Shown in pieces: positions 9,018 through 50,006 of a stretch of DNA of 64,000 nt; the stretch's first letter is position 1, and each line of letters opens with the position of its first letter. The translations under genes and the position numbers were made by a program. Below the pieces are notes generated by a model that worked only from the letters and a program-made list of their open reading frames with translations, had not been told where the DNA came from and made no database searches. The stretch spans positions 64,001 to 128,000 of the IMG/VR virus record IMGVR_UViG_3300037245_001077; one strand, 5' to 3'. This stretch comes from a virus.

Positions 9018-9091
9018 ACCCCTGTAGCTCAATGGTAGAGCGTGGTCCTTATAAGGCCGTGACCCGAGTTCAACTCTCGGCAGGGGTACCA
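9018..9091 (+). tRNA. tRNA-Ile(TAT)
   Basis: Cloverleaf ACCCCTG/CAGGGGT, anticodon loop CT-TAT-AA, encoded CCA. Confidence 0.9.
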
Positions 9092-9092
9092 C

Positions 9093-9122
9093 TTGACAAC
9101 TTCGATACTTAGGTGGTATCGT
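9093..9122 (+). promoter_or_regulatory. sigma70-type promoter for tmRNA
   Basis: TTGACA-18 nt-TATCGT with TG extension. Confidence 0.55.
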
Positions 9123-9144
9123 GTTCCTAGCTTATACAGCACGA

Positions 9145-9175
9145 GGGAGGAAGGACGCGATGCGACCAACCTCCC
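9145..9175 (+). repeat. Conserved hairpin motif, copy 1
   Basis: GGGAGG-[AAGGACGCGATGCGACCAA]-CCTCCC; loop nearly identical to the copy at 10897. Confidence 0.7.
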
Positions 9176-9195
9176 GCCATGGTCTTTCAAAATAT

Positions 9196-9536
9196 GGGGG
9201 CGCACTGGTTTTGACAGGGATGTTTGACGAGAGGGAGAAGCGTGTCGTGTTTGCTTTCGGCGTTAACGAAGGCTACTCGTTTAGTTGACGAATTTGAACA
9301 ACTACCCTTAGCGGCATAGTTCCGCTAACGTGGTCCTAGAAACTCCACCTATCTGGAGACCACGCTATTAGGTGGGCTGAGGTTTCCGTGCTCCATTTGC
9401 AGAGGAAGGCGTAAAGCTCATGTAGGTTAACTTCCTCATCTTAAAAGTAGGGCTTGCTTGAGCCTATCAAGCTACACACGTAGAAGGCTCTTAGATCCTT
9501 CCTTGGACGTGGGTTCGATTCCCACCGCCTCCACCA
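9196..9536 (+). ncRNA. ssrA: tmRNA, tag (A)DEFEQLPLAA*
   Basis: 5' GGGGGCG pairs with 3' CGCCTCC-ACCA (G3.U70), T-arm GGTTCGATTCC, tag ORF 9287-9319 ending LAA-stop. Confidence 0.95.
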
Positions 9537-9554
9537 ATTTTTTAAGGAGACAAG

Positions 9555-9872
9555 ATGAAGTTAATCACACAAATTCCCGAGGTAGGTATCCTTCCGAATG
9601 GTTTGTGGTGGAAGTATGTCCCCGTAAGGGATGATTTTTTTCATTTCGCTATAGGTTTTTGTTGGCGTTGGGGGAAACCCTACTACGATGAGTTTGATAT
9701 GAAGGAGAAGGACTTCTCCAGAGGGTTTCGCACGTCTTTACGATTGGTGAAAAAAGGTAGAGAGTATCGACTTATTCCTGAGCTTTTCTTTTGGGAAGAA
9801 GGCCAACAGTATGGGACGAAGCAGTGGTTTGATCGTAAGCTTTGGAGAACGACCGAAAAAATATCGGATTAG
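9555..9872 (+). CDS. Hypothetical protein
   Basis: SD AAGGAG, aromatic-rich 105 aa. Confidence 0.6.
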   Translation: MKLITQIPEVGILPNGLWWKYVPVRDDFFHFAIGFCWRWGKPYYDEFDMKEKDFSRGFRTSLRLVKKGREYRLIPELFFWEEGQQYGTKQWFDRKLWRTTEKISD

Positions 9873-9875
9873 GGG

Positions 9876-9904
9876 TTGACAAATCCTAAAACATATCCGA
9901 TACT
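9876..9904 (+). promoter_or_regulatory. sigma70-type promoter for the large ncRNA
   Basis: TTGACA-17 nt-GATACT, followed by boxA-like GATCTTTGACA. Confidence 0.65.
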
Positions 9905-9949
9905 AACTACCTTGCATGTAAATGCAACGATCTTTGACATTCAGGATAT

Positions 9950-10815
9950 GGCCACATGGGGTCATTAAGGAAACAGGGGAGTAATCCCCTGGAAGGGGTA
10001 ACGAGAGTGTTACGCTCGCCCACCTATCTTCGGGTAGGCCCATCCATGAGAATCGCGGGTAGCCCGAGCCACGGGTGGGTACGTGTGCCCTAACCTGAGG
10101 AGCAAGGTGATTGTACGGTGGTGCTAGATAAGGGACAAACCGGGTCTTCGGGCCACAAGGTAGCTCTTATCGATTCCTAGCAGGGATGCTAGGTAATCAT
10201 CGATCCAATTGTGAATCAGGCCACTCCTAAGCGATAGATACCTTAGTCCGAGGAAATGGCAAACCTAGGGCGGGGTAGCAGTACCATTGAGGTTTGGGCG
10301 GAATTCCCAAAAATCAAGAAGTACGGGTAAAGGGACAGCTAGTCTCGAATGCCAGGGCGCGTGTTGTATTTTGTGGCTCAAAAGGCTACGAAGCGATGGA
10401 CAGGGCACGAACCCAGTGACATTATCACCGTGAAATTCGCCTAATAGCAAGGCGTTTGGCCTTAGGACCAAAAGATGAGGGTGCAATTCCTTCATTTCAC
10501 TTCAAAACGATAAGGAAAGTCCCTGTCGGTCGCTAAGCGAAAGGGGCCTAAGCCTCTCCCCGCAAGGGAAGGGAGGCCACCGAAGCTCCCAAGGCTGAAA
10601 GTGGTCAATGTGGAAATGAAGACCTTGAGACGGCCATCTCAGGACGGACTGGAAACATCGAGTCGCGGAGCGATGACGAAGGAAATGCTACCTTCTTAAA
10701 AAAGCGGTCCTGGTCGAATACTGGAGAGATCCGGTGGATAAGTTGTTAACTGAAGGATGGAACCTTAGGGTACGGCAACAAAAGGTTGACCACAATAATG
10801 GGTAGTCTCACCATT
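9950..10815 (+). ncRNA. Large structured ncRNA, probably GOLLD family
   Basis: ~860 nt with no credible ORF, many GNRA/UUCG hairpins, own promoter, tRNA-array context and nested tRNA-like domain. Segments GTGTTGTATTTTGTGGCTCAAAAGG and terminal GTAGTCTCA resemble GOLLD as I recall it. Ends approximate. Confidence 0.7.
10430..10501 (+). ncRNA. tRNA-like domain nested in the large ncRNA
   Basis: Acceptor GTGAAAT/ATTTCAC, D-stem GCCT/AGGC, anticodon stem TTTGG/CCAAA with 8-nt loop CCTTAGGA, T-arm GAGGG-TGCAATT-CCTTC, no CCA. Confidence 0.75.
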
Positions 10816-10896
10816 TTCTTTTATTCTCTACCAGTGGTAGGGAATCTTCAAAGGCTCGGTGGTGCCCGCCTGGACGAAACCACCCTATTTTGTCCC

Positions 10897-10929
10897 TAGC
10901 GGGAAGAACGCGATGCGCCTAACCCGCTA
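10897..10929 (+). repeat. Conserved hairpin motif, copy 2
   Basis: TAGCGGG-[AAGAACGCGATGCGCCTAA]-CCCGCTA. Confidence 0.7.
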
Positions 10930-10946
10930 AATTTTGGTTGTAGTGT

Positions 10947-11021
10947 CGCGGAGTGTAGCAGCGGTAGCTAAGCTGGCTCATAACCAGATGGTCGGGGGTT
11001 CGAATCCCCCCTCCGCAACCA
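10947..11021 (+). tRNA. tRNA-Met(CAT), initiator-like
   Basis: Loop CT-CAT-AA, C1xA72 mismatch, CCA; only two of the three initiator G-C anticodon-stem pairs. Confidence 0.9.
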
Positions 11022-11070
11022 AGTTTAGGGGGTGTTCTTTCACCCCTTTTCTTTATTGTCTGGAGAGAGT

Positions 11071-11223
11071 ATGACCCGCAACGCTTTGATCCAGGCTATT
11101 ATCGAGATGGTTACATCTTCTTTACCCAAGAAGATAACGTTGACCAAGAAGATTGGCAAGGATTTGTGGGTAACGGATACGAAGAGAATGCTCGCCCTTA
11201 TGAAGAAGAAGAGGAAGAAGTAA
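11071..11223 (+). CDS. Basic protein, MTREE-motif family
   Basis: MTRNALIQAIIE start after GGAG; Lys-rich body. Confidence 0.65.
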   Translation: MTRNALIQAIIEMVTSSLPKKITLTKKIGKDLWVTDTKRMLALMKKKRKK

Positions 11224-11224
11224 C

Positions 11225-11590
11225 ATGACCCGCGAAGAGCTTACCGAAGCCATTGTTGAAGCAGTTATCGGTTCGCACGAGGCGGGTGTAGCTATCAATA
11301 CCATGTACAACCAGCATCCAAAGCTCTTTAAGAAAATAAACAAGTGGGAATCAGGGAAACGACGGCGTTTGCAGGTTATGAGAAAATTACGGTTGTCTAA
11401 GGATGACGATTTTGATATTAATGATAAGGCGGTAAGCCACTCTACACGCAAAGCGCATAAGTGGTTGTCTAAACGAAAGAATCCGTTAAATCGGACGTTT
11501 CAGGATCGGGTAAAGGCCGTAACTCGTAAGCCTTCAAAGCAAGTAGCGAAGGACGCGCATTACAATATGCGTTCTAGAATGACTTATTAG
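11225..11590 (+). CDS. Basic protein, MTREE-motif family
   Basis: MTREELTEAIVE then K/R-rich body. Confidence 0.75.
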   Translation: MTREELTEAIVEAVIGSHEAGVAINTMYNQHPKLFKKINKWESGKRRRLQVMRKLRLSKDDDFDINDKAVSHSTRKAHKWLSKRKNPLNRTFQDRVKAVTRKPSKQVAKDAHYNMRSRMTY

Positions 11591-11600
11591 AGGAAATAAC

Positions 11601-11642
11601 ATGTTCGTGACAACGATTAAAACCGAGGAGGAAAAGATCTAG
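11601..11642 (+). CDS. Attenuator leader peptide 1 MFVTTIKTEEEKI
   Basis: SD GAGGA; 10 of 12 non-start codons are Thr/Ile/Lys/Glu, the amino acids of the downstream tRNAs. Confidence 0.85.
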   Translation: MFVTTIKTEEEKI

Positions 11643-11647
11643 GATAG

Positions 11648-11698
11648 CCCTGGACATACCTTCGGTGTATCTCCAGGGACCGTAAGGTCTCTTTTTTT
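11648..11698 (+). terminator. Attenuator 1: antiterminator CCCTGGA/TCCAGGG overlapping terminator GGGACC-GTAA-GGTCTC-T7
   Basis: Both hairpins need GGG 11676-11678. Confidence 0.8.
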
Positions 11699-11708
11699 GT
11701 GTCTATGA

Positions 11709-11782
11709 GCCGGTGTAGCATAATGGCAATGCGCGTCTCTTGTAAAGACGGAGATCCAGTTCAACTCTGGCATCCGGCTCCA
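11709..11782 (+). tRNA. tRNA-Thr(TGT)
   Basis: CGTCT-CT-TGT-AA-AGACG, CCA; slightly irregular acceptor/T junction. Confidence 0.85.
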
Positions 11783-11787
11783 ATATT

Positions 11788-11862
11788 CACCCTGTAGAAC
11801 AATGGTCAGTTTACCGGGCTTTCAACCCGATGATCGGGGTTCAACTCCCCGCAGGGTGACCA
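11788..11862 (+). tRNA. tRNA-Glu(TTC)
   Basis: Loop CT-TTC-AA, CACCCTG/CAGGGTG, CCA. Confidence 0.9.
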
Positions 11863-11866
11863 ACTT

Positions 11867-11942
11867 GGCGGTGTCTGCTAACGGTTAGGCAACATGGTTC
11901 TCACCCATGAAATGGCGGGTTCGATTCCCCCCACCGTCACCA
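11867..11942 (+). tRNA. tRNA-Glu(CTC)
   Basis: CATGG-TT-CTC-AC-CCATG, CCA. Confidence 0.9.
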
Positions 11943-11954
11943 TAGGAGATCAAC

Positions 11955-12107
11955 ATGAACGGCGACCGAAACGACAAGATGTCCGAACTCATGCGAGCAA
12001 TTCGCTGGGGGTGGGACTGTATGTACCCTGTCCGTATCAAGGGTAGTGAGAAACGTCGTTTGCGTCGAAAATACCGTCACGATGCTAAACGTGAGATAGC
12101 CCTGTAG
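11955..12107 (+). CDS. 50-aa basic ORF inside tRNA operon 1
   Basis: SD AGGAG; MNGDRNDKMSELMRAIRWGWDC...; stop codon lies inside the 5' end of tRNA-Ile. Confidence 0.5.
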   Translation: MNGDRNDKMSELMRAIRWGWDCMYPVRIKGSEKRRLRRKYRHDAKREIAL

Positions 12108-12172
12108 CTCAGTGGTAGAGCAGAGGGTCGATAACCCTCGTGTCCGTGGTTCGAATCCACGTGGGGCTACCA
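12098..12172 (+). tRNA. tRNA-Ile(GAT)
   Basis: GAGGG-TC-GAT-AA-CCCTC, CCA. Confidence 0.92.
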
Positions 12173-12179
12173 TTTACAC

Positions 12180-12255
12180 ACCCCCATGACGCAACTGGCA
12201 GCGTAGCTGGCTCTTAACCAGTATGTTGAAGGTTCGACTCCTTCTGGGGGTACCA
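12180..12255 (+). tRNA. tRNA-Lys(CTT)
   Basis: Loop CT-CTT-AA, CCA. Confidence 0.92.
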
Positions 12256-12258
12256 TGT

Positions 12259-12333
12259 GGGATCGTGGCGCAATGGAAGCGCAACAGGCTTTTAACCTGA
12301 ATGTTGAGAGTTCGAGTCTCTCCGGTCCCACCA
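12259..12333 (+). tRNA. tRNA-Lys(TTT)
   Basis: Loop CT-TTT-AA, CCA. Confidence 0.92.
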
Positions 12334-12365
12334 CCTTCTTCCTTCTTTATTTCTTGGGAGATGCT

Positions 12366-12599
12366 ATGACCCGAGAAGAACTTATTGAAGCCATTGTTGA
12401 AGTGATGCAGCGAAGTAAACATCCTCTAACGGGTGGTCATTTCAGTTTTCCTCCTCCTATGAAAACAAGAGCAGGGCAGTGGACAAGACGGAAGCGTTTG
12501 AGGGTTGTTTCTGGTGCTATGACAGGTAAAGACCCTAGCATAACGAAATCTATGGCTTTTGCTTCTGAAATAGCTCGAAGAAAACGAGCAAACAAATAG
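12366..12599 (+). CDS. Basic protein, MTREE-motif family
   Basis: MTREELIEAIVE; start re-assigned to 12366 (SD GGGAG). Confidence 0.75.
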   Translation: MTREELIEAIVEVMQRSKHPLTGGHFSFPPPMKTRAGQWTRRKRLRVVSGAMTGKDPSITKSMAFASEIARRKRANK

Positions 12600-12610
12600 A
12601 GGATTAAAAT

Positions 12611-12844
12611 ATGACCCGTGAAGAGATTATTGAAGCCATTATCCTTACTGAGTTCGAGCCTTTGACTATGATTGCTGCTGGTGCGGCTACTGGTTACGCG
12701 GCTAGAAAGTTGAGAAACCGTTATAGCGTTAAAGGAGCCACAGGTGCGGCTAAGAGAAGTTCGGCTATCTCGAAGGCATATGCGAAGAAGGCTGAGCGGC
12801 ATACCGCAAGGGCAAAGTTCCTTACTGCTAGAAAGAACGCATAA
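12611..12844 (+). CDS. Basic protein, MTREE-motif family
   Basis: MTREEIIEAIILTE, Ala/Gly segment, basic tail. Confidence 0.75.
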   Translation: MTREEIIEAIILTEFEPLTMIAAGAATGYAARKLRNRYSVKGATGAAKRSSAISKAYAKKAERHTARAKFLTARKNA

Positions 12845-13944
12845 TGACCCGAGATAAGATTATTGAAGATATTGTTGAAGGCTACGTCAAAGATGTGCTC
12901 ACTTACGATTTGAGTAAGCATCATCCTAGACCCCATGAGCGCTTCCGCTTCAACAACGCAGCCCGTAAAGCCAAAGAGAAGGCACGGGAAGTGTTTAGGA
13001 ACAAAGCCAAGAGCGCACATGATACTCAACCTATTGACGTTTCCAAGTTTGTATCCAAATCTACAGCTCGTAGGGCACCGGGGATCAAAGTCCCCAAAAG
13101 CTATCGCCCTAAACTTAAGATGAGTTCAGCTAGGCGAAAGGGTCCAACCGTTCGCCAACAGCAGGGCAGAAAAGCAGTGTTGGGTGCAGCGGCAGCTATT
13201 GGTGCGGGTATGGTGGCTCATAAGGCGTACAAGTACCATAAGGCCAAAAAGAAAAGAGAGATGCGTGAAGGCTTGATTGAGGCCCTTTCTACTCATAAGG
13301 TCTACAAGGCTAGGATGTTTTCAAAGAAGCCACAATCTTATGCTAAAACAATGACTTATTGGCAAACTCCAGAACAGAAGAGTTTAAAAGCTGTTAAGAA
13401 AAAGATTCCCGTGGTTTCTTTAGAGTTAAGGAGTAAAAAGGATAAGTCTACCCATCAGGTGTCGCTTGCTCCAGATCCTCGTAAGAGGCTTTGGGGGAAA
13501 TTGGCAAAGATGCAGGGGTTTGACCCTAAATCAAAGAAAGCAACGCTTAAACGACGGGCGTTTTATCGTTTGCGTAAGAACAAGTACAAGGTTGTTGAGG
13601 GTGACCTAGGGGACTTCGCTGTAGCCCCAACCGCAGCCGTAGACGCTTCCCCGATCCATAAAGAGCAGAGGGATCGGTATTGGATGATCAAGAACCGTAA
13701 GAAGATCAAGAACATGATAGTGAAAGAGGTTTTTGACGACACCTATGGTTCGAGCGTGCTTGACCGAGCAGCACGGGTGGAAAAATCTACAAACTTTATT
13801 GCTAAGGCGAAAAAGCTTAAAAGCCTTGTTGGTAAGGCGAGAAAGCTTACTAAGGATTATGAGCTTGGTATGTACCACGGTGCGGGCAAAATGTCTAAGA
13901 TGAATATCTCTTTGGGTAACAAAAAATTTGGGAAGATAGGGTAG
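12844..13944 (+). CDS. Long basic protein, MTREE-motif family
   Basis: MTRDKIIEDIVE plus internal MREGLIEAL. Confidence 0.75.
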   Translation: MTRDKIIEDIVEGYVKDVLTYDLSKHHPRPHERFRFNNAARKAKEKAREVFRNKAKSAHDTQPIDVSKFVSKSTARRAPGIKVPKSYRPKLKMSSARRKGPTVRQQQGRKAVLGAAAAIGAGMVAHKAYKYHKAKKKREMREGLIEALSTHKVYKARMFSKKPQSYAKTMTYWQTPEQKSLKAVKKKIPVVSLELRSKKDKSTHQVSLAPDPRKRLWGKLAKMQGFDPKSKKATLKRRAFYRLRKNKYKVVEGDLGDFAVAPTAAVDASPIHKEQRDRYWMIKNRKKIKNMIVKEVFDDTYGSSVLDRAARVEKSTNFIAKAKKLKSLVGKARKLTKDYELGMYHGAGKMSKMNISLGNKKFGKIG

Positions 13945-13952
13945 GGGTTAAC

Positions 13953-14225
13953 ATGACACGCGAAGAAGTGATTGAAGCCATTGTATACGAGATGACGCAA
14001 GAGAAAAAAGATAAGTGGAAGTCTCGTGCCAAGAAAACTGCAATCGGGGCTGGTATAATTGGAGTAGGTGTTCTTGCTACGAAAGCTCCTAAAGCTAAGC
14101 GTTATCATGCTTTAGGTAAAAAGGTGTCTTCTACGGTGGATAGTAGCGCTTACAGACAAGCTTTGGTTTCTAAGAACAAATATGGATTGCATGTTGACAA
14201 ATACTATGGTTCTTCTTCTTTTTAA
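13953..14225 (+). CDS. Basic protein, MTREE-motif family
   Basis: MTREEVIEAIVYE. Confidence 0.75.
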   Translation: MTREEVIEAIVYEMTQEKKDKWKSRAKKTAIGAGIIGVGVLATKAPKAKRYHALGKKVSSTVDSSAYRQALVSKNKYGLHVDKYYGSSSF

Positions 14226-14228
14226 GGC

Positions 14229-14257
14229 TTGACAACGGTAACAAAAGATGCCATACT
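14229..14257 (+). promoter_or_regulatory. sigma70-type promoter of tRNA operon 2
   Basis: TTGACA-17 nt-CATACT with TG extension. Confidence 0.75.
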
Positions 14258-14266
14258 AAATCAGTA

Positions 14267-14326
14267 ATGAAGAATTTTCTATATACCCTCGTTGATTGTG
14301 TAGCCCACTTTGATAGTTGGCTTTAG
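14267..14326 (+). CDS. Attenuator leader peptide 2 MKNFLYTLVDCVAHFDSWL
   Basis: Contains all 8 amino acids (D,L,A,H,C,Y,F,V) of the downstream tRNAs; ATG 9 nt after the -10 box. Confidence 0.85.
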   Translation: MKNFLYTLVDCVAHFDSWL

Positions 14327-14377
14327 GGGGGTTTTTGTCTTTTCGTCTTTGACACCCCCTGCACAAGGGGGTTTTTT
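14325..14377 (+). terminator. Attenuator 2: antiterminator AGGGGG..TGTC/GACACCCCCT versus terminator ACCCCCT-GCACA-AGGGGGT-T5
   Basis: The C-run 14355-14359 can pair with either G-run. Confidence 0.8.
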
Positions 14378-14384
14378 AGTATTC

Positions 14385-14461
14385 GGGGGTGTAGTCTAGT
14401 AGAGTAAGGCCCTGGATTGTCAGTCCAGTGATCGCCGGTTCGAGTCCGGTCACTCCCGCCA
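14385..14461 (+). tRNA. tRNA-Asp(GTC)
   Basis: CTGGA-TT-GTC-AG-TCCAG, G73, CCA. Confidence 0.92.
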
Positions 14462-14481
14462 AGTTCTTTGAAAATTAGTGT

Positions 14482-14566
14482 GCTGAGGTGGCGAAGTTGG
14501 TAGACGCGCTGGTCTTAGGAACCAGTGTCTTCGGGCGTGTGGGTTCGAATCCCTCCCTCAGCACCA
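14482..14566 (+). tRNA. tRNA-Leu(TAG)
   Basis: CTGGT-CT-TAG-GA-ACCAG, long variable arm, CCA. Confidence 0.92.
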
Positions 14567-14577
14567 AAATATCGTGT

Positions 14578-14653
14578 GGGCTGTCATGTTCCAAGGGGGC
14601 GAGGAGCACTTGCAATGCACCTGTGGAGGGTTCGATTCCCTTGCGGTCCACCA
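14578..14653 (+). tRNA. tRNA-Ala(TGC)
   Basis: Loop CT-TGC-AA, G3.U70, atypical D arm, CCA. Confidence 0.85.
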
Positions 14654-14657
14654 AGTT

Positions 14658-14731
14658 GTGAGGGTAGTGTAATGGCAGCACGAGAGTTTGTGGCACTCTC
14701 AGAGCGGATTCAAATTCCGTCCCTCACCCCA
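14658..14731 (+). tRNA. tRNA-His(GTG)
   Basis: AGAGT-TT-GTG-GC-ACTCT, C73, CCA; G-1 not encoded. Confidence 0.88.
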
Positions 14732-14811
14732 GTTTCGGTTTTGGGGGTCCGACACAGTGTTACAAGCTACCTCAGAGGTAGTTCAAGGGCACTCTACAAA
14801 ATCCCCATTTG

Positions 14812-14885
14812 AGGGTGGTGGCCGAGAGGCTAGGCAGGGGACTGCAAATCCTTTTACGCGGGTTCAAATCCCGCCCACCTTTCCA
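14812..14885 (+). tRNA. tRNA-Cys(GCA)
   Basis: Loop CT-GCA-AA, U73, CCA. Confidence 0.92.
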
Positions 14886-14886
14886 T

Positions 14887-14972
14887 GCCAGTATAGACCT
14901 CTATGGAGGGGGGACGGGTTGTAGCCCCGTTGTTGCAAGGCCCGCAAGGTTCGATTCCTTGTACTGGCACCA
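14887..14972 (+). tRNA. tRNA-Tyr(GTA)
   Basis: ACGGG-TT-GTA-GC-CCCGT, long variable arm, CCA. Confidence 0.88.
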
Positions 14973-14975
14973 TTT

Positions 14976-15051
14976 GCCTCTGTAGCTCAGGTAGTAGAGC
15001 GCGAGACTGAAGATCTCGGCGTCGGGGGTGCAAGTCCTCCTGGGGGCACCA
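14976..15051 (+). tRNA. tRNA-Phe(GAA)
   Basis: CGAGA-CT-GAA-GA-TCTCG, CCA. Confidence 0.9.
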
Positions 15052-15054
15052 TTT

Positions 15055-15130
15055 AGGCAGGTAGCTCAGTTGGTAGAGTTGCTGGTTTACACCCAGTCTG
15101 TCATCGGTTCGAATCCGGTCCTGCCTACCA
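15055..15130 (+). tRNA. tRNA-Val(TAC)
   Basis: Loop TT-TAC-AC, CCA. Confidence 0.92.
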
Positions 15131-15192
15131 TTCACTTTATTGTTTGGGGTATGTATGTTTCGTGAAGATTATTTTATAAAACGGGATAAAAT

Positions 15193-16068
15193 ATGACGGA
15201 TAGAAATTTAGATTATGACTATGCTGCAAAGCAACGAGATATTACTCGTGAGCAGTATGCTAAAGGAACATATATTTATGCTGGTTATAGTCCTGCAACA
15301 CCTTTAGTGTGGAATGTTGAGGATCAGCCGATTGGCTCAGGTGCTCCGGCAAACGTGTTTGACGCCTGGGGCGAGGACTTGGAGGTCCGGGCGATCCCTG
15401 TGGATGGGAAAGAGCCGCTGACGCCGTTCACCAAGGAGCTTCATGCAAAAACAGGGAACCCTGGATATCTCTATGGGCTGTACTTCACATTATTGCTCGA
15501 TGGTTTTGATATTGATTTGAATAATGGTAAATTCCGGGTTGAAATTGTGGCTCGGCATGTTGTCCCAGATCCAGAATTTCAGCCCGGTCAATACTTACAG
15601 CTTGGTGAGGACGACTATTACCCAGAATGGGATACGTGGCGCATGTTCAAAGCCGGGTTTCTTTCTGAAGAGTCCGGCGAAAGTGATGTTCAATCTTGGC
15701 ATTGGGAGTTTGGTGGTGAACTATATAATTCGTTCTATGACTACAAGGTAAACTGGGAGTTCGGAACACCAATTGTCGGATACACTATCCACCAGATCGA
15801 GGTGGATTTCCAAGCTGGCGTGTTCGAGCAACGCATCGTTGGTCATTGGGCAGGAGATCAAGGAGAGCAATCATCTTGGTGGGTTAAGGCTCCTCGCGCC
15901 GCTGAATTTCCGGCTGGAGAACAGTCAGCACAGACGCTCATATTATGGCTTCAAGATAAAAACAGCGGAGAGGCGATGGTTACTCAGCTTTGGCTTGGCC
16001 CAATTACTGACCCATTCCCAAATGGCGCGGTTTTGACATCGAATATCGGGTTTGGAAATAGTTCTTGA
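15193..16068 (+). CDS. Hypothetical aromatic-rich protein (possible virion/lectin-like)
   Basis: 291-aa ORF between tRNA operons, W/Y/F-rich. Confidence 0.6.
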   Translation: MTDRNLDYDYAAKQRDITREQYAKGTYIYAGYSPATPLVWNVEDQPIGSGAPANVFDAWGEDLEVRAIPVDGKEPLTPFTKELHAKTGNPGYLYGLYFTLLLDGFDIDLNNGKFRVEIVARHVVPDPEFQPGQYLQLGEDDYYPEWDTWRMFKAGFLSEESGESDVQSWHWEFGGELYNSFYDYKVNWEFGTPIVGYTIHQIEVDFQAGVFEQRIVGHWAGDQGEQSSWWVKAPRAAEFPAGEQSAQTLILWLQDKNSGEAMVTQLWLGPITDPFPNGAVLTSNIGFGNSS

Positions 16069-16093
16069 CAAGCCCTTTATTGGGTGTTAGAGT
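16065..16093 (+). promoter_or_regulatory. sigma70-type promoter of tRNA operon 3
   Basis: TTGACA-17 nt-TAGAGT with TG extension. Confidence 0.75.
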
Positions 16094-16102
16094 GATTAAG
16101 TT

Positions 16103-16171
16103 ATGAAGAGATTATCCTCAAGGTTGTGGCAACAGAGCGGCTCGAATCCGAGTCGCCCAGGAGAGCTGTAA
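16103..16171 (+). CDS. Attenuator leader peptide 3 MKRLSSRLWQQSGSNPSRPGEL
   Basis: Has a codon readable by each of the 12 downstream tRNAs; all 21 non-start sense codons differ. Confidence 0.9.
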   Translation: MKRLSSRLWQQSGSNPSRPGEL

Positions 16172-16236
16172 CTAAGGGGTAAAGATGCCAATTCGCCCGT
16201 TCCGTTCTTACCCCCTAGTACAGTAGGGGGTTTTTT
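16172..16236 (+). terminator. Attenuator 3: antiterminator CTAAGGGGTAAAGA/TCTTACCCCCTAG versus terminator ACCCCCTA-GTACAG-TAGGGGGT-T5
   Basis: Shared C-run 16211-16215. Confidence 0.85.
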
Positions 16237-16246
16237 ATTGATCTAA

Positions 16247-16258
16247 GTTCTTTGAAAA
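16247..16258 (+). promoter_or_regulatory. boxA-like antitermination site
   Basis: GTTCTTTGAAAA; identical copy at 14463-14474. Confidence 0.6.
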
Positions 16259-16271
16259 CAAAAAGTTATGT

Positions 16272-16348
16272 CCGAGAATGGCGCAGTTTGGCAGCGCACT
16301 TGGTTTGGGACCAAGGTGTCGAAGGTTCAAATCCTTCTTCTCGGACCA
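16272..16348 (+). tRNA. tRNA-Pro(TGG)
   Basis: CTTGG-TT-TGG-GA-CCAAG, CCA. Confidence 0.92.
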
Positions 16349-16349
16349 T

Positions 16350-16434
16350 GGAAGGTACCGTCTATGGAGACAAGCGGTTTTGAACACCGTAGGCACGTGT
16401 AAGCGCGGGGGTTCGATTCCTCTACCTTCCTCCA
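16350..16434 (+). tRNA. tRNA-Ser(TGA)
   Basis: Loop TT-TGA-AC, long variable arm, CCA. Confidence 0.88.
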
Positions 16435-16444
16435 AGTTGTGTGT

Positions 16445-16519
16445 TCGGGCATGGTGTTAGTGGTAGCATACGAGGTTTCCACCCTCTGGGGCCGGGTTCG
16501 AGTCCTGGTGCCCGAACCA
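16445..16519 (+). tRNA. tRNA-Gly(TCC)
   Basis: Loop TT-TCC-AC, CCA. Confidence 0.88.
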
Positions 16520-16529
16520 AAATTTATGT

Positions 16530-16603
16530 AGGGGTATAGTGAAATGGTATCACGGCAGATTCCAGACCTGCTTTTCCGGGTTCAAATCCTGGTACCTCTG
16601 CCA
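16530..16603 (+). tRNA. tRNA-Trp(CCA)
   Basis: Loop TT-CCA-GA, G73, CCA. Confidence 0.88.
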
Positions 16604-16609
16604 AAGATT

Positions 16610-16698
16610 GGAAGGGTGGCTGAGTGGTAACAGCGCCGGGTTGCTAACCCGAGGCCGCGCTTCGGCGTGCGAGGGTTCGATCCCCTCTCCTTCCTCCA
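16610..16698 (+). tRNA. tRNA-Ser(GCT)
   Basis: Loop TT-GCT-AA, long variable arm, CCA. Confidence 0.92.
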
Positions 16699-16704
16699 AG
16701 TGTT

Positions 16705-16808
16705 GAACGGTGTGGCGTGGCAGCGTCAGGTTTTCCGTTAAGGAGATCATCCCTCCACTGCCTAATCGGAGAATGATGGGAGCTGGGTGGGGAATCCAGC
16801 CACCGTTC
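16705..16808 (+). ncRNA. Putative ~105-nt structured RNA of unknown class
   Basis: Closed by GAACGGTG/CACCGTTC, occupies a slot between two tRNAs. Confidence 0.5.
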
Positions 16809-16818
16809 ACTTTTTTGA

Positions 16819-16895
16819 GGCCCTGTAGCTCAGCGAACAGAGCATATGGCTACGAACCATAGTTGTCGGGGGTTTGAATCCCTCCAGGGCTTCCA
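16819..16895 (+). tRNA. tRNA-Arg(ACG)
   Basis: TATGG-CT-ACG-AA-CCATA, CCA. Confidence 0.92.
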
Positions 16896-16898
16896 TTT

Positions 16899-16974
16899 GC
16901 ACCCGTGGTCTAATGGCAAAGGCACTGCGTTTCTACCGCAGCAGATGTGGGTTCGACTCCTACCGGGTGTTCCA
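16899..16974 (+). tRNA. tRNA-Arg(TCT)
   Basis: CTGCG-TT-TCT-AC-CGCAG, CCA. Confidence 0.92.
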
Positions 16975-16984
16975 AAACTTATTC

Positions 16985-17063
16985 GGCACGGTAGCTTAGC
17001 ATGGCCTAAAGCAGTAGTTTGTTAAACTAATGATCGTAGGTTCAAATCCTACCTGTGCCGCCA
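16985..17063 (+). tRNA. tRNA-Asn(GTT)
   Basis: Loop TT-GTT-AA, G73, CCA. Confidence 0.9.
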
Positions 17064-17069
17064 AATTTT

Positions 17070-17156
17070 GCTGGAGTGGCTGGAATTGGTATACGCAGGG
17101 GACTTAAAATCCCTGGCCGAAAGGTCGTGTGGGTTCGACTCCCACCTCCAGCACCA
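17070..17156 (+). tRNA. tRNA-Leu(TAA)
   Basis: Loop CT-TAA-AA, long variable arm, CCA. Confidence 0.92.
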
Positions 17157-17161
17157 GCTAT

Positions 17162-17238
17162 GCCGCTCTGGGCCAATTGGTAGAGTCGGGGGTCTCAAAA
17201 GCCCTTTGTTCCGAGTTCGAATCTCGGGGGCGGCACCA
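17162..17238 (+). tRNA. tRNA-Leu(CAA), short variable loop
   Basis: Loop CT-CAA-AA, A73, CCA, only a 5-nt variable region. Confidence 0.85.
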
Positions 17239-17241
17239 TTT

Positions 17242-17317
17242 AGCGGAGTAGCTCAATTGGTAGAGCACTGGACTCTGAATTCAGTTGTTGTAGGTTCAAA
17301 CCCTACCTCCGCTGCCA
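17242..17317 (+). tRNA. tRNA-Gln(CTG)
   Basis: Loop CT-CTG-AA, CCA. Confidence 0.92.
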
Positions 17318-17392
17318 TTTTGATTGCAGAAACTGACACTTTTTGGTAGGTTACGCGAATGAAAAGCACTGTTTGTGGTCATAATGACTACT

Positions 17393-17468
17393 AGGGGAGT
17401 AGCTCAATTGGTGGAGCAACAGGCTTTGAACCTGTTGGATGTGAGTTCGAACCTCACCTCCCCTTCCA
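17393..17468 (+). tRNA. tRNA-Gln(TTG)
   Basis: ACAGG-CT-TTG-AA-CCTGT, CCA. Confidence 0.92.
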
Positions 17469-48188: not shown

Positions 48189-50006
48189 ATGCCTGAAAAT
48201 AAATTGATTCAGGGCTTTATGCGTATGACTGGGCTGGATAAGGTTATTCAGCGTGAAGTAGCTCTACGCGCACAGCTCGGGGGTATCCAAACTCAATTCG
48301 CTGGTGGTGATGACCTTGTTGGGGATTTGGCTACTATTGAAGAGGCCCTAAGTCAGTTCAATATGATTACCCGGATGCATCGTGAACGTAGGATGCGTTA
48401 TCGGGATTACGAAGCGATGGACAACTACGGAGACGTATCCGTAGCTTTAGATATCTATGCGGAAGAGGCTACTCAGACTGATCTCGTTAAGGACGAGAAC
48501 CTCTGGGTAACGGGTGACGATGCTCGTGCAGTAGAAGAGGTGCAAAAATTTCTTGTTAAGCACCGTATGCATACCCTGATCCAGGGGTTTGCTCGGAATC
48601 TTGCTAAGTATGGAGACATGTTCCTATCCTTGAGGTATACGTATGAGGGGATTGATCGTATTCTCTATCTTCCCCCGGACTATATCCACCGTATTGGCCC
48701 TAGTCTGGATCAGATTAAGCACTTCAAGCTGGAGCACCAGCTTGCCAAGGTTTCTCCCCGTCAAGATGGGCTGTTGCTCCCTTGGGAGTGTGTCCATTTA
48801 AGATTGCTTTCGTTCGGGTTCTCCACTCTTTATGGGCGTTCTATGATTGAGCCTGCACGTAAGCGTTGGTTGCACCTAAAACTTCTTGAAGATGCGGTTG
48901 CTATCTACCGTTTGAATCGGGCTGTTGAGCGGATCGTTTTCTACATCGATGTGGGTTCTGCTTCACCTTCTGAGTCTCTGCGGATTGTAAACACCTACAA
49001 ACGGAAGTTTGGAAATAAGCGTTCTTACATTGATCCGTCGCAGGGTACATTCGAGCAGCAGTATGACCCCCACAACATGTTGGAAAACATCTACTGGCCT
49101 GTGAATAGTGCTACTGAGCGATCTCGCATCGAGAAGCTGAACCCTCCGCCTGAGCAGGGACAACTTCAGGATCTTGATCACTTCAACGAGAAACTTTATG
49201 TGGCTCTAGGTATTCCGCGTGATTACCTAACTGGAGAAACTTCAGGAAGCTGGAATAGCCGGGAAGCTTTGGCTCTTCAAGATGTTCGATTCTCCCGTAA
49301 GCTACATATGCTTCAGATTGCTCTCCTAGAGGGCCTGGAGACCCTGTGCCGCTTCCACCTTGCTGTCCTGTGGGGCGATCCTGACAGAGCGGTAGCAGCT
49401 CGGTTTAATCTCCATCTAGCGGATATCTCTAAGGTAGCTCGCCAACAGTACGACACCGTTATGCTTAATCGTATCCAGCTCTTGACCATGATGAATGATC
49501 TTGGTACTCAAATGAGCTTTAACCGGGACGTGTGGGTACCGTTTGTTGTTGAGAACTTCTTCCCTGATATTCCGAAAGAAATGATTTCGCAGTTGATCAT
49601 CCCTGATGAAGAGTTGGCTGCGGCAGGAGATGAGTTAGACGCTATGAGAAATCCTCCTCCTGCTGCGGCAGCAGCTAAGAAACCTGCTGCGGCAGCAGCC
49701 AAGAAACCTGCTGCGGCAGCAGCCAAGAAACCTGCTGCTAAAAAGAAGAAGACTACTACTGAGGTTATCCGGCACACGATCATGAATGATTTGTTGAGCC
49801 GTAATCTCGTAGAAGATAAGGACAAAAAACTTTTAGAAGATCTCCTTGCTGTAAGTGGGACCATACAGGGTCCACAGGATTTCTCTTTTACTTTAGACCA
49901 CCCTGTAGAAATTCCACGGAAAGTTTTACAAGAGTTGGTGAAGCAACATTCGAGGAAGAAGAAGCCTAATAGTGTCCTCGTGGAGACAACCAATGGGGGT
50001 AAGTAG
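48189..50006 (+). CDS. Portal protein (T4 gp20-like)
   Basis: LLEDAVAIYRLNRAVER.VFYIDVG, KLY.AL.IP, DVRFSR motifs. Confidence 0.95.
   Translation: MPENKLIQGFMRMTGLDKVIQREVALRAQLGGIQTQFAGGDDLVGDLATIEEALSQFNMITRMHRERRMRYRDYEAMDNYGDVSVALDIYAEEATQTDLVKDENLWVTGDDARAVEEVQKFLVKHRMHTLIQGFARNLAKYGDMFLSLRYTYEGIDRILYLPPDYIHRIGPSLDQIKHFKLEHQLAKVSPRQDGLLLPWECVHLRLLSFGFSTLYGRSMIEPARKRWLHLKLLEDAVAIYRLNRAVERIVFYIDVGSASPSESLRIVNTYKRKFGNKRSYIDPSQGTFEQQYDPHNMLENIYWPVNSATERSRIEKLNPPPEQGQLQDLDHFNEKLYVALGIPRDYLTGETSGSWNSREALALQDVRFSRKLHMLQIALLEGLETLCRFHLAVLWGDPDRAVAARFNLHLADISKVARQQYDTVMLNRIQLLTMMNDLGTQMSFNRDVWVPFVVENFFPDIPKEMISQLIIPDEELAAAGDELDAMRNPPPAAAAAKKPAAAAAKKPAAAAAKKPAAKKKKTTTEVIRHTIMNDLLSRNLVEDKDKKLLEDLLAVSGTIQGPQDFSFTLDHPVEIPRKVLQELVKQHSRKKKPNSVLVETTNGGK
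49659..49739 (+). repeat. 24-nt tandem repeat (PAAAAAKK x3 plus partial) in the portal gene
   Basis: CCTGCTGCGGCAGCAGCYAAGAAA. Confidence 0.9.

Follow-up and report, generated by a model that had tools for sequence, protein, structure and literature searches.

Why phages carry transfer RNA (tRNA) genes has been debated for fifty years. Here we describe a tRNA gene cluster at positions 9018–17468 of a 64,000-nucleotide stretch of virus DNA, hereafter the window, which comprises bases 64001–128000 of the 176,533-bp IMG/VR record IMGVR_UViG_3300037245_001077. Among described systems, one of the closest is the L-array (trn operon) of Anabaena PCC 7120, which stays off during normal growth and comes on under translational stress (PMC8421152), with induction running via the repressor TrcR (PMC10272220). 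A second is the nuclease-insensitive phage tRNA, put forward as a hypothesis by van den Berg et al. 2023 (PMC10264068) and represented experimentally by T5 tRNAs acting against PARIS (PMC11464382) and a phage tRNA-Tyr acting against retron effectors (PMC11555353). The multivalent attenuators of amino-acid operons (ilvGMEDA, thr, trp, his) are a further point of comparison.

Like the L-arrays, which also occur in phages, the locus packs supernumerary tRNA genes densely on a mobile element and can be thought of as a subset that impaired translation would induce. Whereas the Anabaena array answers to a protein repressor, the phage array is predicted to be controlled in cis by three leader-peptide attenuators, and it is split into three codon-matched operons within a lytic-type phage genome; the terms ‘attenuat’ and ‘leader’ do not occur in the L-array paper (PMC8421152). 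With the nuclease-insensitive phage tRNAs it shares anticodon loops unlike the usual bacterial ones and the idea of replacing depleted host tRNAs. Those cases, however, had a known host and known nucleases, whereas the loops here are compared without either; the window's variants are also mostly unconserved, and its tRNAs are coupled to a predicted stall sensor. Like the amino-acid operon attenuators, each phage leader joins a short ORF (open reading frame) of regulatory codons to an antiterminator that overlaps a terminator, and the position of the ribosome is predicted to set the switch. They differ in that the output is tRNAs rather than biosynthetic enzymes, that each leader samples 6, 8 or 12 tRNAs once or twice instead of carrying runs of a single codon, and that two of them appear nearly leaderless. 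A full-text literature search found no paper connecting leader peptides or attenuators with phage tRNA genes. On balance we read the locus as a demand-gated, that is inducible, spare tRNA set, an interpretation that we consider somewhat probable.

Codon-matched leaders precede three tRNA operons

The array holds 28 tRNA genes within 8.45 kb, 26 of them in three blocks on the + strand: operon 1 (11709–12333, six genes), operon 2 (14385–15130, eight genes) and operon 3 (16272–17468, twelve genes). Upstream of each block lie a short ORF and an intrinsic terminator. Leader 1 (11601–11642, + strand) would encode the peptide MFVTTIKTEEEKI, leader 2 (14267–14326, +) the peptide MKNFLYTLVDCVAHFDSWL and leader 3 (16103–16171, +) the peptide MKRLSSRLWQQSGSNPSRPGEL*. 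Leader 1 samples all 6 tRNAs of its operon, leader 2 all 8 and leader 3 all 12, and a cognate codon is thus found in its own predicted leader for 26/26 operon tRNAs. Among 388 ATG-initiated short ORFs of the genome's + strand, the highest share of codons read by a given operon is found in each case in that operon's own leader (10/12 codons for leader 1, 13/18 for leader 2 and 18/21 for leader 3; binomial probabilities 2.5e-5, 2.6e-3 and 2.4e-6, respectively). Codons foreign to the operon are placed in the leader tail, where stalling would be ineffective.

Each leader runs into a pair of mutually exclusive predicted helices, all on the + strand. In attenuator 1 (11648–11699) the antiterminator at 11648–11678 overlaps a terminator at 11675–11692 that is followed by seven T residues. 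In attenuator 2 (14324–14378) an antiterminator formed by 14324–14333 with 14351–14361 competes with the terminator at 14354–14372 and its six T residues, and in attenuator 3 (16166–16237) the antiterminator at 16166–16223 overlaps the terminator at 16210–16231, again with six T residues. Nascent transcripts ending at the terminator loop were folded with the ribosome applied as a mask. In these co-transcriptional folds the 5′ arm of the terminator is sequestered as long as the A site stands at or before codon 11 (leader 1), codon 15 (leader 2) or codon 19 (leader 3), and it is free once the ribosome is at the last codons or the stop. The same dependence on ribosome position is reproduced in folds of two related arrays (L012 and L019), where the helices are kept despite different sequences.

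Promoter-like sites lie upstream of leaders 2 and 3 on the + strand (14229–14257, TTGACA-17-CATACT; 16065–16093, TTGACA-17-TAGAGT). In both, the ATG stands 9 nt past the −10 hexamer, the spacing also found upstream of leader 2 in L012 and L019, and the leader 2 and 3 starts share a conserved GATTNNGTTATG context (14258–14269 and 16094–16105 in the window, 2529–2540 in L012, 4034–4045 in L019). As judged from this layout, the mRNAs of leaders 2 and 3 should be nearly leaderless and lack a Shine-Dalgarno sequence. Leader 1 has a Shine-Dalgarno sequence and no promoter of its own.

To place the leaders in an evolutionary context, we reached relatives by walking from array-adjacent proteins, which gave fragments of syntenic arrays in five more lineages (L013/L014, L012, L019/L020, L023 and L025) and a more distant relative, L024, with a tRNA-Met only. 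Leader peptides are identical or similar in five relatives. L013 and L019 share the exact leader 1 peptide of the window, and L025 its leader 3 peptide, all nucleotide changes being synonymous, whereas identity among the tRNAs is 60–98%. Gene content and leader codons also change together, though only partially for Val in L012. L019 lacks Gln(ctg), its Gln(ttg) follows ORFs and a terminator, and its leader 3 is free of Gln codons; in L012, where the Val tRNA is no longer part of operon 2, leader 2 has Ala codons in place of two Val codons.

Searching IMG/VR with back-translated leader patterns returned chance matches or none. A crude screen of 460 tRNA clusters returned four further matching leaders where 0.2 were expected by permutation. 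The further matching leaders include those of L127 and L099 (contigs of Acidobacteriaceae metagenome-assembled genomes), L160 and L151. The matching short ORFs (MMLRTFKHEIVRMTGKRVIWGVVS; MKMLSQSRLQLQSSYLSLKAPGCGM) belong to the loci at about 2900–4090 of L127 and about 3300–4350 of L151 (flipped), and in these arrays an HNH-type ORF is accompanied by several tRNAs with C33, Tyr and Ile among them.

A probable demand-gated spare set

According to the interpretation we favor, the phage would carry a minimal, nearly complete decoding set, with one U34 tRNA per four-codon box, beside a transfer-messenger RNA (tmRNA) and a GOLLD RNA. A ribosome that reached the leader stop codon would cover the 5′ arm of the antiterminator, so that the terminator would form and transcription would end. 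Scarcity of any one aminoacyl-tRNA of the operon would stall the ribosome earlier and leave the antiterminator intact, the tRNA genes would be transcribed, and the newly made tRNAs would relieve the stall, closing a negative feedback loop. Such a switch would sense the total pool of host and phage tRNAs and be blind to the cause of scarcity, opening on any shortage of charged tRNA, be it from host shut-off, codon mismatch or amino-acid starvation. Control of this kind had been raised as a possibility by the first-pass annotation of the window, and the inducible part of that proposal is well supported in silico by the codon-matched leaders, the ribosome-dependent folds and the conservation of the leaders. 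We infer switching, feedback and any benefit from the anatomy, conservation and covariation of the locus, which are directly observable.

Several observations weigh against a demand-gated set. Amino-acid starvation would open the switch though extra tRNA would be no help. Whole-transcript minimum free energy folds show no antiterminator for window leaders 2 and 3, which appears in the co-transcriptional folds only, and folds without a ribosome predict read-through, so that the near-leaderless leaders would have to be translated efficiently for the switch to stay off. The operons are not closed by any strong terminator, and downstream ORFs may be co-regulated. Leader 2 of L012 retains one Val codon although the Val tRNA has moved away. 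Finally, the sequencing runs listed as containing the sequence are marine-sediment or marine metagenome DNA contigs, one of which may be its source, and no RNA run is among them.

We also considered codon compensation as the main role of the set. In four-codon boxes the phage favors NNT codons (GGT 40%, CCT 43%, GCT 41%) and does not avoid CGG. NNT codons are those read worst by U34 tRNAs; the set is therefore not tuned to phage codon usage, and we rejected codon compensation for this reason. The set looks like the smallest that covers everything, which fits a backup role. The wiring suggests when the tRNAs are wanted, namely when the codons that they themselves read are decoded more slowly, and this favors a backup over a supplement for codon usage.

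The tRNA gene set

ARAGORN, at default settings, places 27 tRNA genes, each with an encoded CCA, and a tmRNA on the + strand between 9018 and 17468. Rfam agrees with these calls and adds the GOLLD RNA and a tRNA-like element inside it. The 28th gene, tRNA-Ala(tgc), is missed by default ARAGORN and by Rfam at E<=1 and is called by ARAGORN at the relaxed setting (-ps). It is a 76-nt cloverleaf with a UGC anticodon, G3:U70, A73 and CCA; position 8 is C, however, and the D arm is weak. Its counterparts are called at the relaxed setting in L012 and L019, and in L012 at the default as well. With many tRNA genes on one strand of a mobile element, and syntenic arrays in L012, L013, L019, L023 and L025, the locus is a tRNA array.

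Two tRNA genes stand outside the three attenuated operons. tRNA-Ile(UAU) (9018–9091, +; loop CT-TAT-AA) is 96% identical in L013. tRNA-Met(CAU) (10947–11021, +), which is followed by a terminator at 11027–11048, is the sole CAU tRNA and has the C1xA72 mismatch typical of bacterial initiators. In operon 1, on the + strand as are the genes of the other operons, the order is Thr(tgt) (11709–11782), Glu(ttc) (11788–11862), Glu(ctc) (11867–11942), Ile(gat) with C33 (12098–12172), Lys(ctt) (12180–12255) and Lys(ttt) (12259–12333). Operon 2 comprises Asp (14385–14461), Leu(tag) (14482–14566), Ala(tgc) (14578–14653), His (14658–14731), Cys (14812–14885), Tyr (14887–14972), Phe (14976–15051) and Val (15055–15130). 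Operon 3 comprises Pro (16272–16348), Ser(tga) (16350–16434), Gly (16445–16519), Trp (16530–16603), Ser(gct) (16610–16698), Arg(acg) (16819–16895), Arg(tct) (16899–16974), Asn (16985–17063), Leu(taa) (17070–17156), Leu(caa) (17162–17238), Gln(ctg) (17242–17317) and Gln(ttg) (17393–17468).

If U34 reads whole four-codon boxes, this set can read 60 of the 61 sense codons, the exception being CGG. The array had been annotated as complete for all 20 amino acids, and formally all 20 are covered; the description needs tempering because Ala is called at a relaxed threshold only and the single Met tRNA is initiator-like. To judge from the gene calls, an elongator tRNA-Met is not evident in the set.

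Some Leu-anticodon tRNAs of these arrays (CAA or UAA) measure only 77–78 nt, without the long variable arm that bacterial tRNA-Leu has. They occur at 17162–17238 of the window, 5130–5285 of L012 and 2346–2505 of L025; the Leu(caa) of L023 is 85 nt long.

Anticodon loops are rare combinations of ordinary parts

The first-pass annotation had singled out eight anticodon loops as differing from the usual bacterial ones, and its readings agree to the letter with the loops extracted from the ARAGORN structures: Tyr TT-GTA-GC, Trp TT-CCA-GA, Phe CT-GAA-GA, Ser(tga) TT-TGA-AC, Arg(tct) TT-TCT-AC, Gly TT-TCC-AC, Asp TT-GTC-AG and Ile(gat) TC-GAT-AA. We compared them with two references. The first, all 86 tRNA genes of E. 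coli K-12, which is not the phage's host, has U33 in 86/86 tRNAs, A37-A38 in all tRNAs with A36 or U36, and G38 in none; the U32…C38 combination is present there in Ala(UGC). The second reference consists of 1479 unique tRNAs, among the matches listed, from 119 IMG/VR loci picked solely for a canonical tRNA-Ile. The window's loop is absent from this phage background for Tyr (0/53), Trp (0/55), Ser (0/38), Arg(tct) (0/42) and Gly (0/42), and, among the matches listed, Asp TT-AG occurs in 2/56 tRNAs, Phe CT-GA in 16/53 and any Phe G37 in 27/53. The claim of unusual loops therefore holds for six of the eight, which stand at or below 4% even among phage-array tRNAs, and for the rule-breaking C33 of Ile, but the Phe loop is common in phages. 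Most of the flagged loops are rare yet assembled from ordinary parts, either U32 with C38 or G37.

In other respects the tRNAs look functional by conventional features: U33 is present in 27/28 window tRNAs and a purine at position 37 in 28/28, most have canonical U8, GG and T-loops, and bacterial identity elements are present. The departures are C33 in Ile, G55 in Phe, A19:U56 in Arg(acg), C8 with the weak D arm in Ala, and A8 in Ser(tga). In tRNA-Phe (14976–15051) the T-loop reads TGCAAGT, with G55 replacing U55, as in the tRNA-like element within the GOLLD RNA. tRNA-Arg(acg) (16819–16895) has a D loop without GG and has T56, which looks like a swap of the tertiary G19:C56 pair to A:U.

One alternative account of the loops is partial independence from host modification enzymes, among them those of the i6A37 pathway, by which a burst of phage tRNA would work without hypermodification. 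MiaA needs the A36-A37-A38 motif, and G37 or C38 in tRNAs that decode codons beginning with U (UNN decoders) removes it. That motif is broken in 4/7 UNN decoders of the window, G37 is found in 8/26 across the clade, and the frequent G37 of tRNA-Phe in phage arrays points the same way. Modified purines at position 37 strengthen the weak A:U pair formed with the first codon base (PMC5041475). A CAU tRNA for AUA is lysidine-dependent, and the phage has Ile(UAU), in which a UAU anticodon replaces CAU; L025 carries Arg(UCG) in place of the inosine-dependent Arg(ACG). Methylation of G37 by bacterial TrmD is not expected where position 36 is A, however, which counts against this account, and the UNN decoders of L012 are all canonical A37-A38. 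The strict determinant of N6-threonylcarbamoyladenosine (t6A), 36-UAA-38 (PMC13276492), is kept in 7/8 window tRNAs that read codons beginning with A (ANN decoders), and these would still rely on host modification. We regard the account as doubtful.

Loop evolution and the possibility of counter-defence

Across lineages the anticodons and the gene order are conserved, whereas the loops mostly are not. Position 37 of tRNA-Phe is G in the window and L019 and A in L012; Trp G37 and Gly TT..AC are confined to the window; and positions 37–38 of tRNA-Asp read AG, GC or TG, different in each of three lineages. Identities of single tRNAs are out of step with phage relatedness, the Leu(UAA) of the window being 98% identical to that of L019 and 62% identical to that of the nearer phage L025. 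As these identities do not track relatedness, the comparison suggests that tRNA alleles have been exchanged within a fixed gene order. For the demand-gated set we picture the loop variants, mostly lineage-variable at positions 32, 37 and 38, as what may be functional alleles of a fast-evolving, recombining tRNA pool.

Over 149 orthologous pairs, divergence is 26.4% at positions 32, 37 and 38 and 23.8% at all other tRNA positions (p=0.21); the loop flanks evolve neither faster nor more slowly than the tRNA body. Divergence at the rate of the tRNA body is what relaxed constraint would give, with tRNAs that are redundant with the host's drifting, some of them decaying, and the odd loops meaningless. 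The poor D arm and C8 of tRNA-Ala fit such a process, as do the Ser(tga) counterparts of L023 and L025, which fall below the ARAGORN threshold. Set against it are the conserved anticodons and gene order, a U33 that is invariant save in Ile, and A37 in 32/32 ANN decoders of the clade. Moreover, stem changes are compensatory, positions 32 and 38 tend to co-vary (TT..AC versus CT..AA), tertiary pairs covary, and every operon tRNA has its leader codon. Relaxed constraint is thus a very improbable explanation of the locus, and pure decay of the tRNAs appears unlikely from these patterns, in which selection is visible despite the variability of the loops.

One candidate for selection is C33 of Ile(GAU), which persists on three different anticodon stems in every lineage whose sequence covers the gene: the window, L013/L014 and L019. 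It departs from U33, one of the least violated rules of tRNA structure, the only exceptions listed by Grosjean and Westhof (PMC5041475) being eukaryotic initiators and a Candida tRNA-Ser. Together with G37-C38 in His and Tyr and non-A38 in Arg(UCU), C33 is conserved and probably selected. A pattern scan for the Ile C33 loop returned 96 stretches in IMG/VR and 107 in species-representative genomes, and ARAGORN calls a tRNA-Ile(GAU) with C33 in 92/96 and 103/107 of these, respectively. The loci lie nearly always within dense tRNA arrays (median 8 tRNAs per locus in IMG/VR, 12 in genomes), and in the genome arrays C33 is found in 207/1301 unique tRNAs, including Gly, Thr, Tyr and Glu. Recurrence in ~200 array loci makes a specific selective agent likely. 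A role for C33 in blocking t6A37 was considered and rejected for bacteria, where U33 is unrelated to t6A (PMC13276492).

Such an agent could be an anticodon nuclease. The first-pass annotation had proposed a dedicated counter-defence, in which nucleases would deplete host tRNAs, the attenuators would sense the loss, and loop variants (C33, G37, C38, G38) would escape cleavage. Beyond the published hypothesis and cases (PMC10264068, PMC11464382, PMC11555353), the proposal gains from the rarity of six of the eight loops even among phage-array tRNAs, from the Ile C33 kept in three lineages and recurring mostly in dense arrays, from an Asp 37–38 that is different in every lineage, and from the suggested exchange of alleles. 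A search for RNA_ligase, RtcB and a CCA-adding enzyme found none in the record, which is ~81% complete by CheckV estimate; the lack of a tRNA ligase or RtcB fits replacement rather than repair. On the other side, most of the odd loops are absent from close relatives, and positions 32, 37 and 38 show no excess divergence. The tRNA-Lys(UUU) is the classic anticodon nuclease target. Its loop in the window (CT-TTT-AA) is nevertheless canonical and identical to the E. coli loop, and the Thr, Asn and Met tRNAs likewise retain canonical or near-canonical loops. The predicted sensor, moreover, would answer any shortage, not cleavage specifically. The recurrent C33, the hypervariable Asp loop and the shuffling of alleles fit an arms race without proving one, and a dedicated counter-defence strikes us as an unlikely, though not far-fetched, account of the array.

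We attach low probability to a fuller version, a sensor-and-effector regulon whose leaders would detect the tRNA species destroyed by a nuclease and switch on a nuclease-invisible replacement set while tmRNA cleared stalled ribosomes. If the loop variants did block anticodon nucleases, this would be the first phage to sense and repair tRNA depletion through one cis-encoded circuit.

tmRNA and GOLLD RNA

The tmRNA (9196–9536, +; 111.5 bits) encodes the tag DEFEQLPLAA and has a promoter-like site at 9093–9122. Counterparts are found in L013 (4304–4627), with an identical tag, and in L019 (1156–1484). Downstream of it in the window lies the GOLLD RNA (RF02032; 10354–10814, +), which scores 161.5 bits against a gathering threshold of 150; the GOLLD RNAs of L013 (5444–5903) and L019 (628–1087) score 164.6 and 187.2 bits. 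In L019 the gene order is GOLLD, tmRNA, Met.

The GOLLD RNA of the window embeds a tRNA-like cloverleaf (10430–10501, +; 51 bits). In the window and in L013 this element has an 8-nt anticodon loop (CCTTAGGA and CTTTAGGA, respectively) and no CCA. In L019 it is a 70-bit tRNA with a CCA and the anticodon UUA, which would read the UAA stop codon.

Phage genome and setting

The record has a G+C content of 47.8%, and the large ORFs are nearly all on the + strand. A T4-type portal (48189–50006) is the sole Pfam match above cut-off among 20 large ORFs scanned, and two further ORFs match tail or structural PHROGs. This is a lytic-type phage. Its portal shares no more than 29% identity with any from a cultured phage and 60–91% with those of metagenome relatives, and a search of cultured phages found no close DNA relatives of the window; for these reasons no host can be inferred. 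The window tRNAs, at most 84% identical to any tRNA of ~320 sampled arrays, give no host clue. Among DNA runs that contain the sequence, the best is a marine-sediment metagenome, and the phage belongs to a deep-branching uncultured clade from sediments. Portal relatives in IMG/VR have no tRNAs in the sequence parts examined. Two ORFs inside the array (12844–13944 and 15193–16068) have no Pfam or PHROG match, and an IMG/VR search with them found nothing.

Small elements within the array

A boxA-like motif, TCTTTGAAAA, is found past the leader 3 terminator (16249–16258), between Asp and Leu(tag) (14465–14474) and, with one mismatch, just 5′ of the tmRNA (9183–9192). It recurs at the same place in L012, L019, L025 and L023, and its count across the whole window is not above chance. 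In L127 the order is leader ORF, terminator and TCTTTGAAAA box, and TCTTTGACAA follows the other leader of L151.

Two spacers, one between His and Cys (14732–14811, 80 nt) and one between Ser(gct) and Arg(acg) (16699–16818, 117 nt), are absent from L012 and also from contigs of other runs. Comparison with contigs of four runs gave for the most part unrelated tRNA-like pieces, along with indel variants of two spacers, and we did not use it as evidence. L019 and L025 retain a related spacer 5′ of their Arg tRNA. Both spacers of the window may be inserted small elements or structured RNAs.

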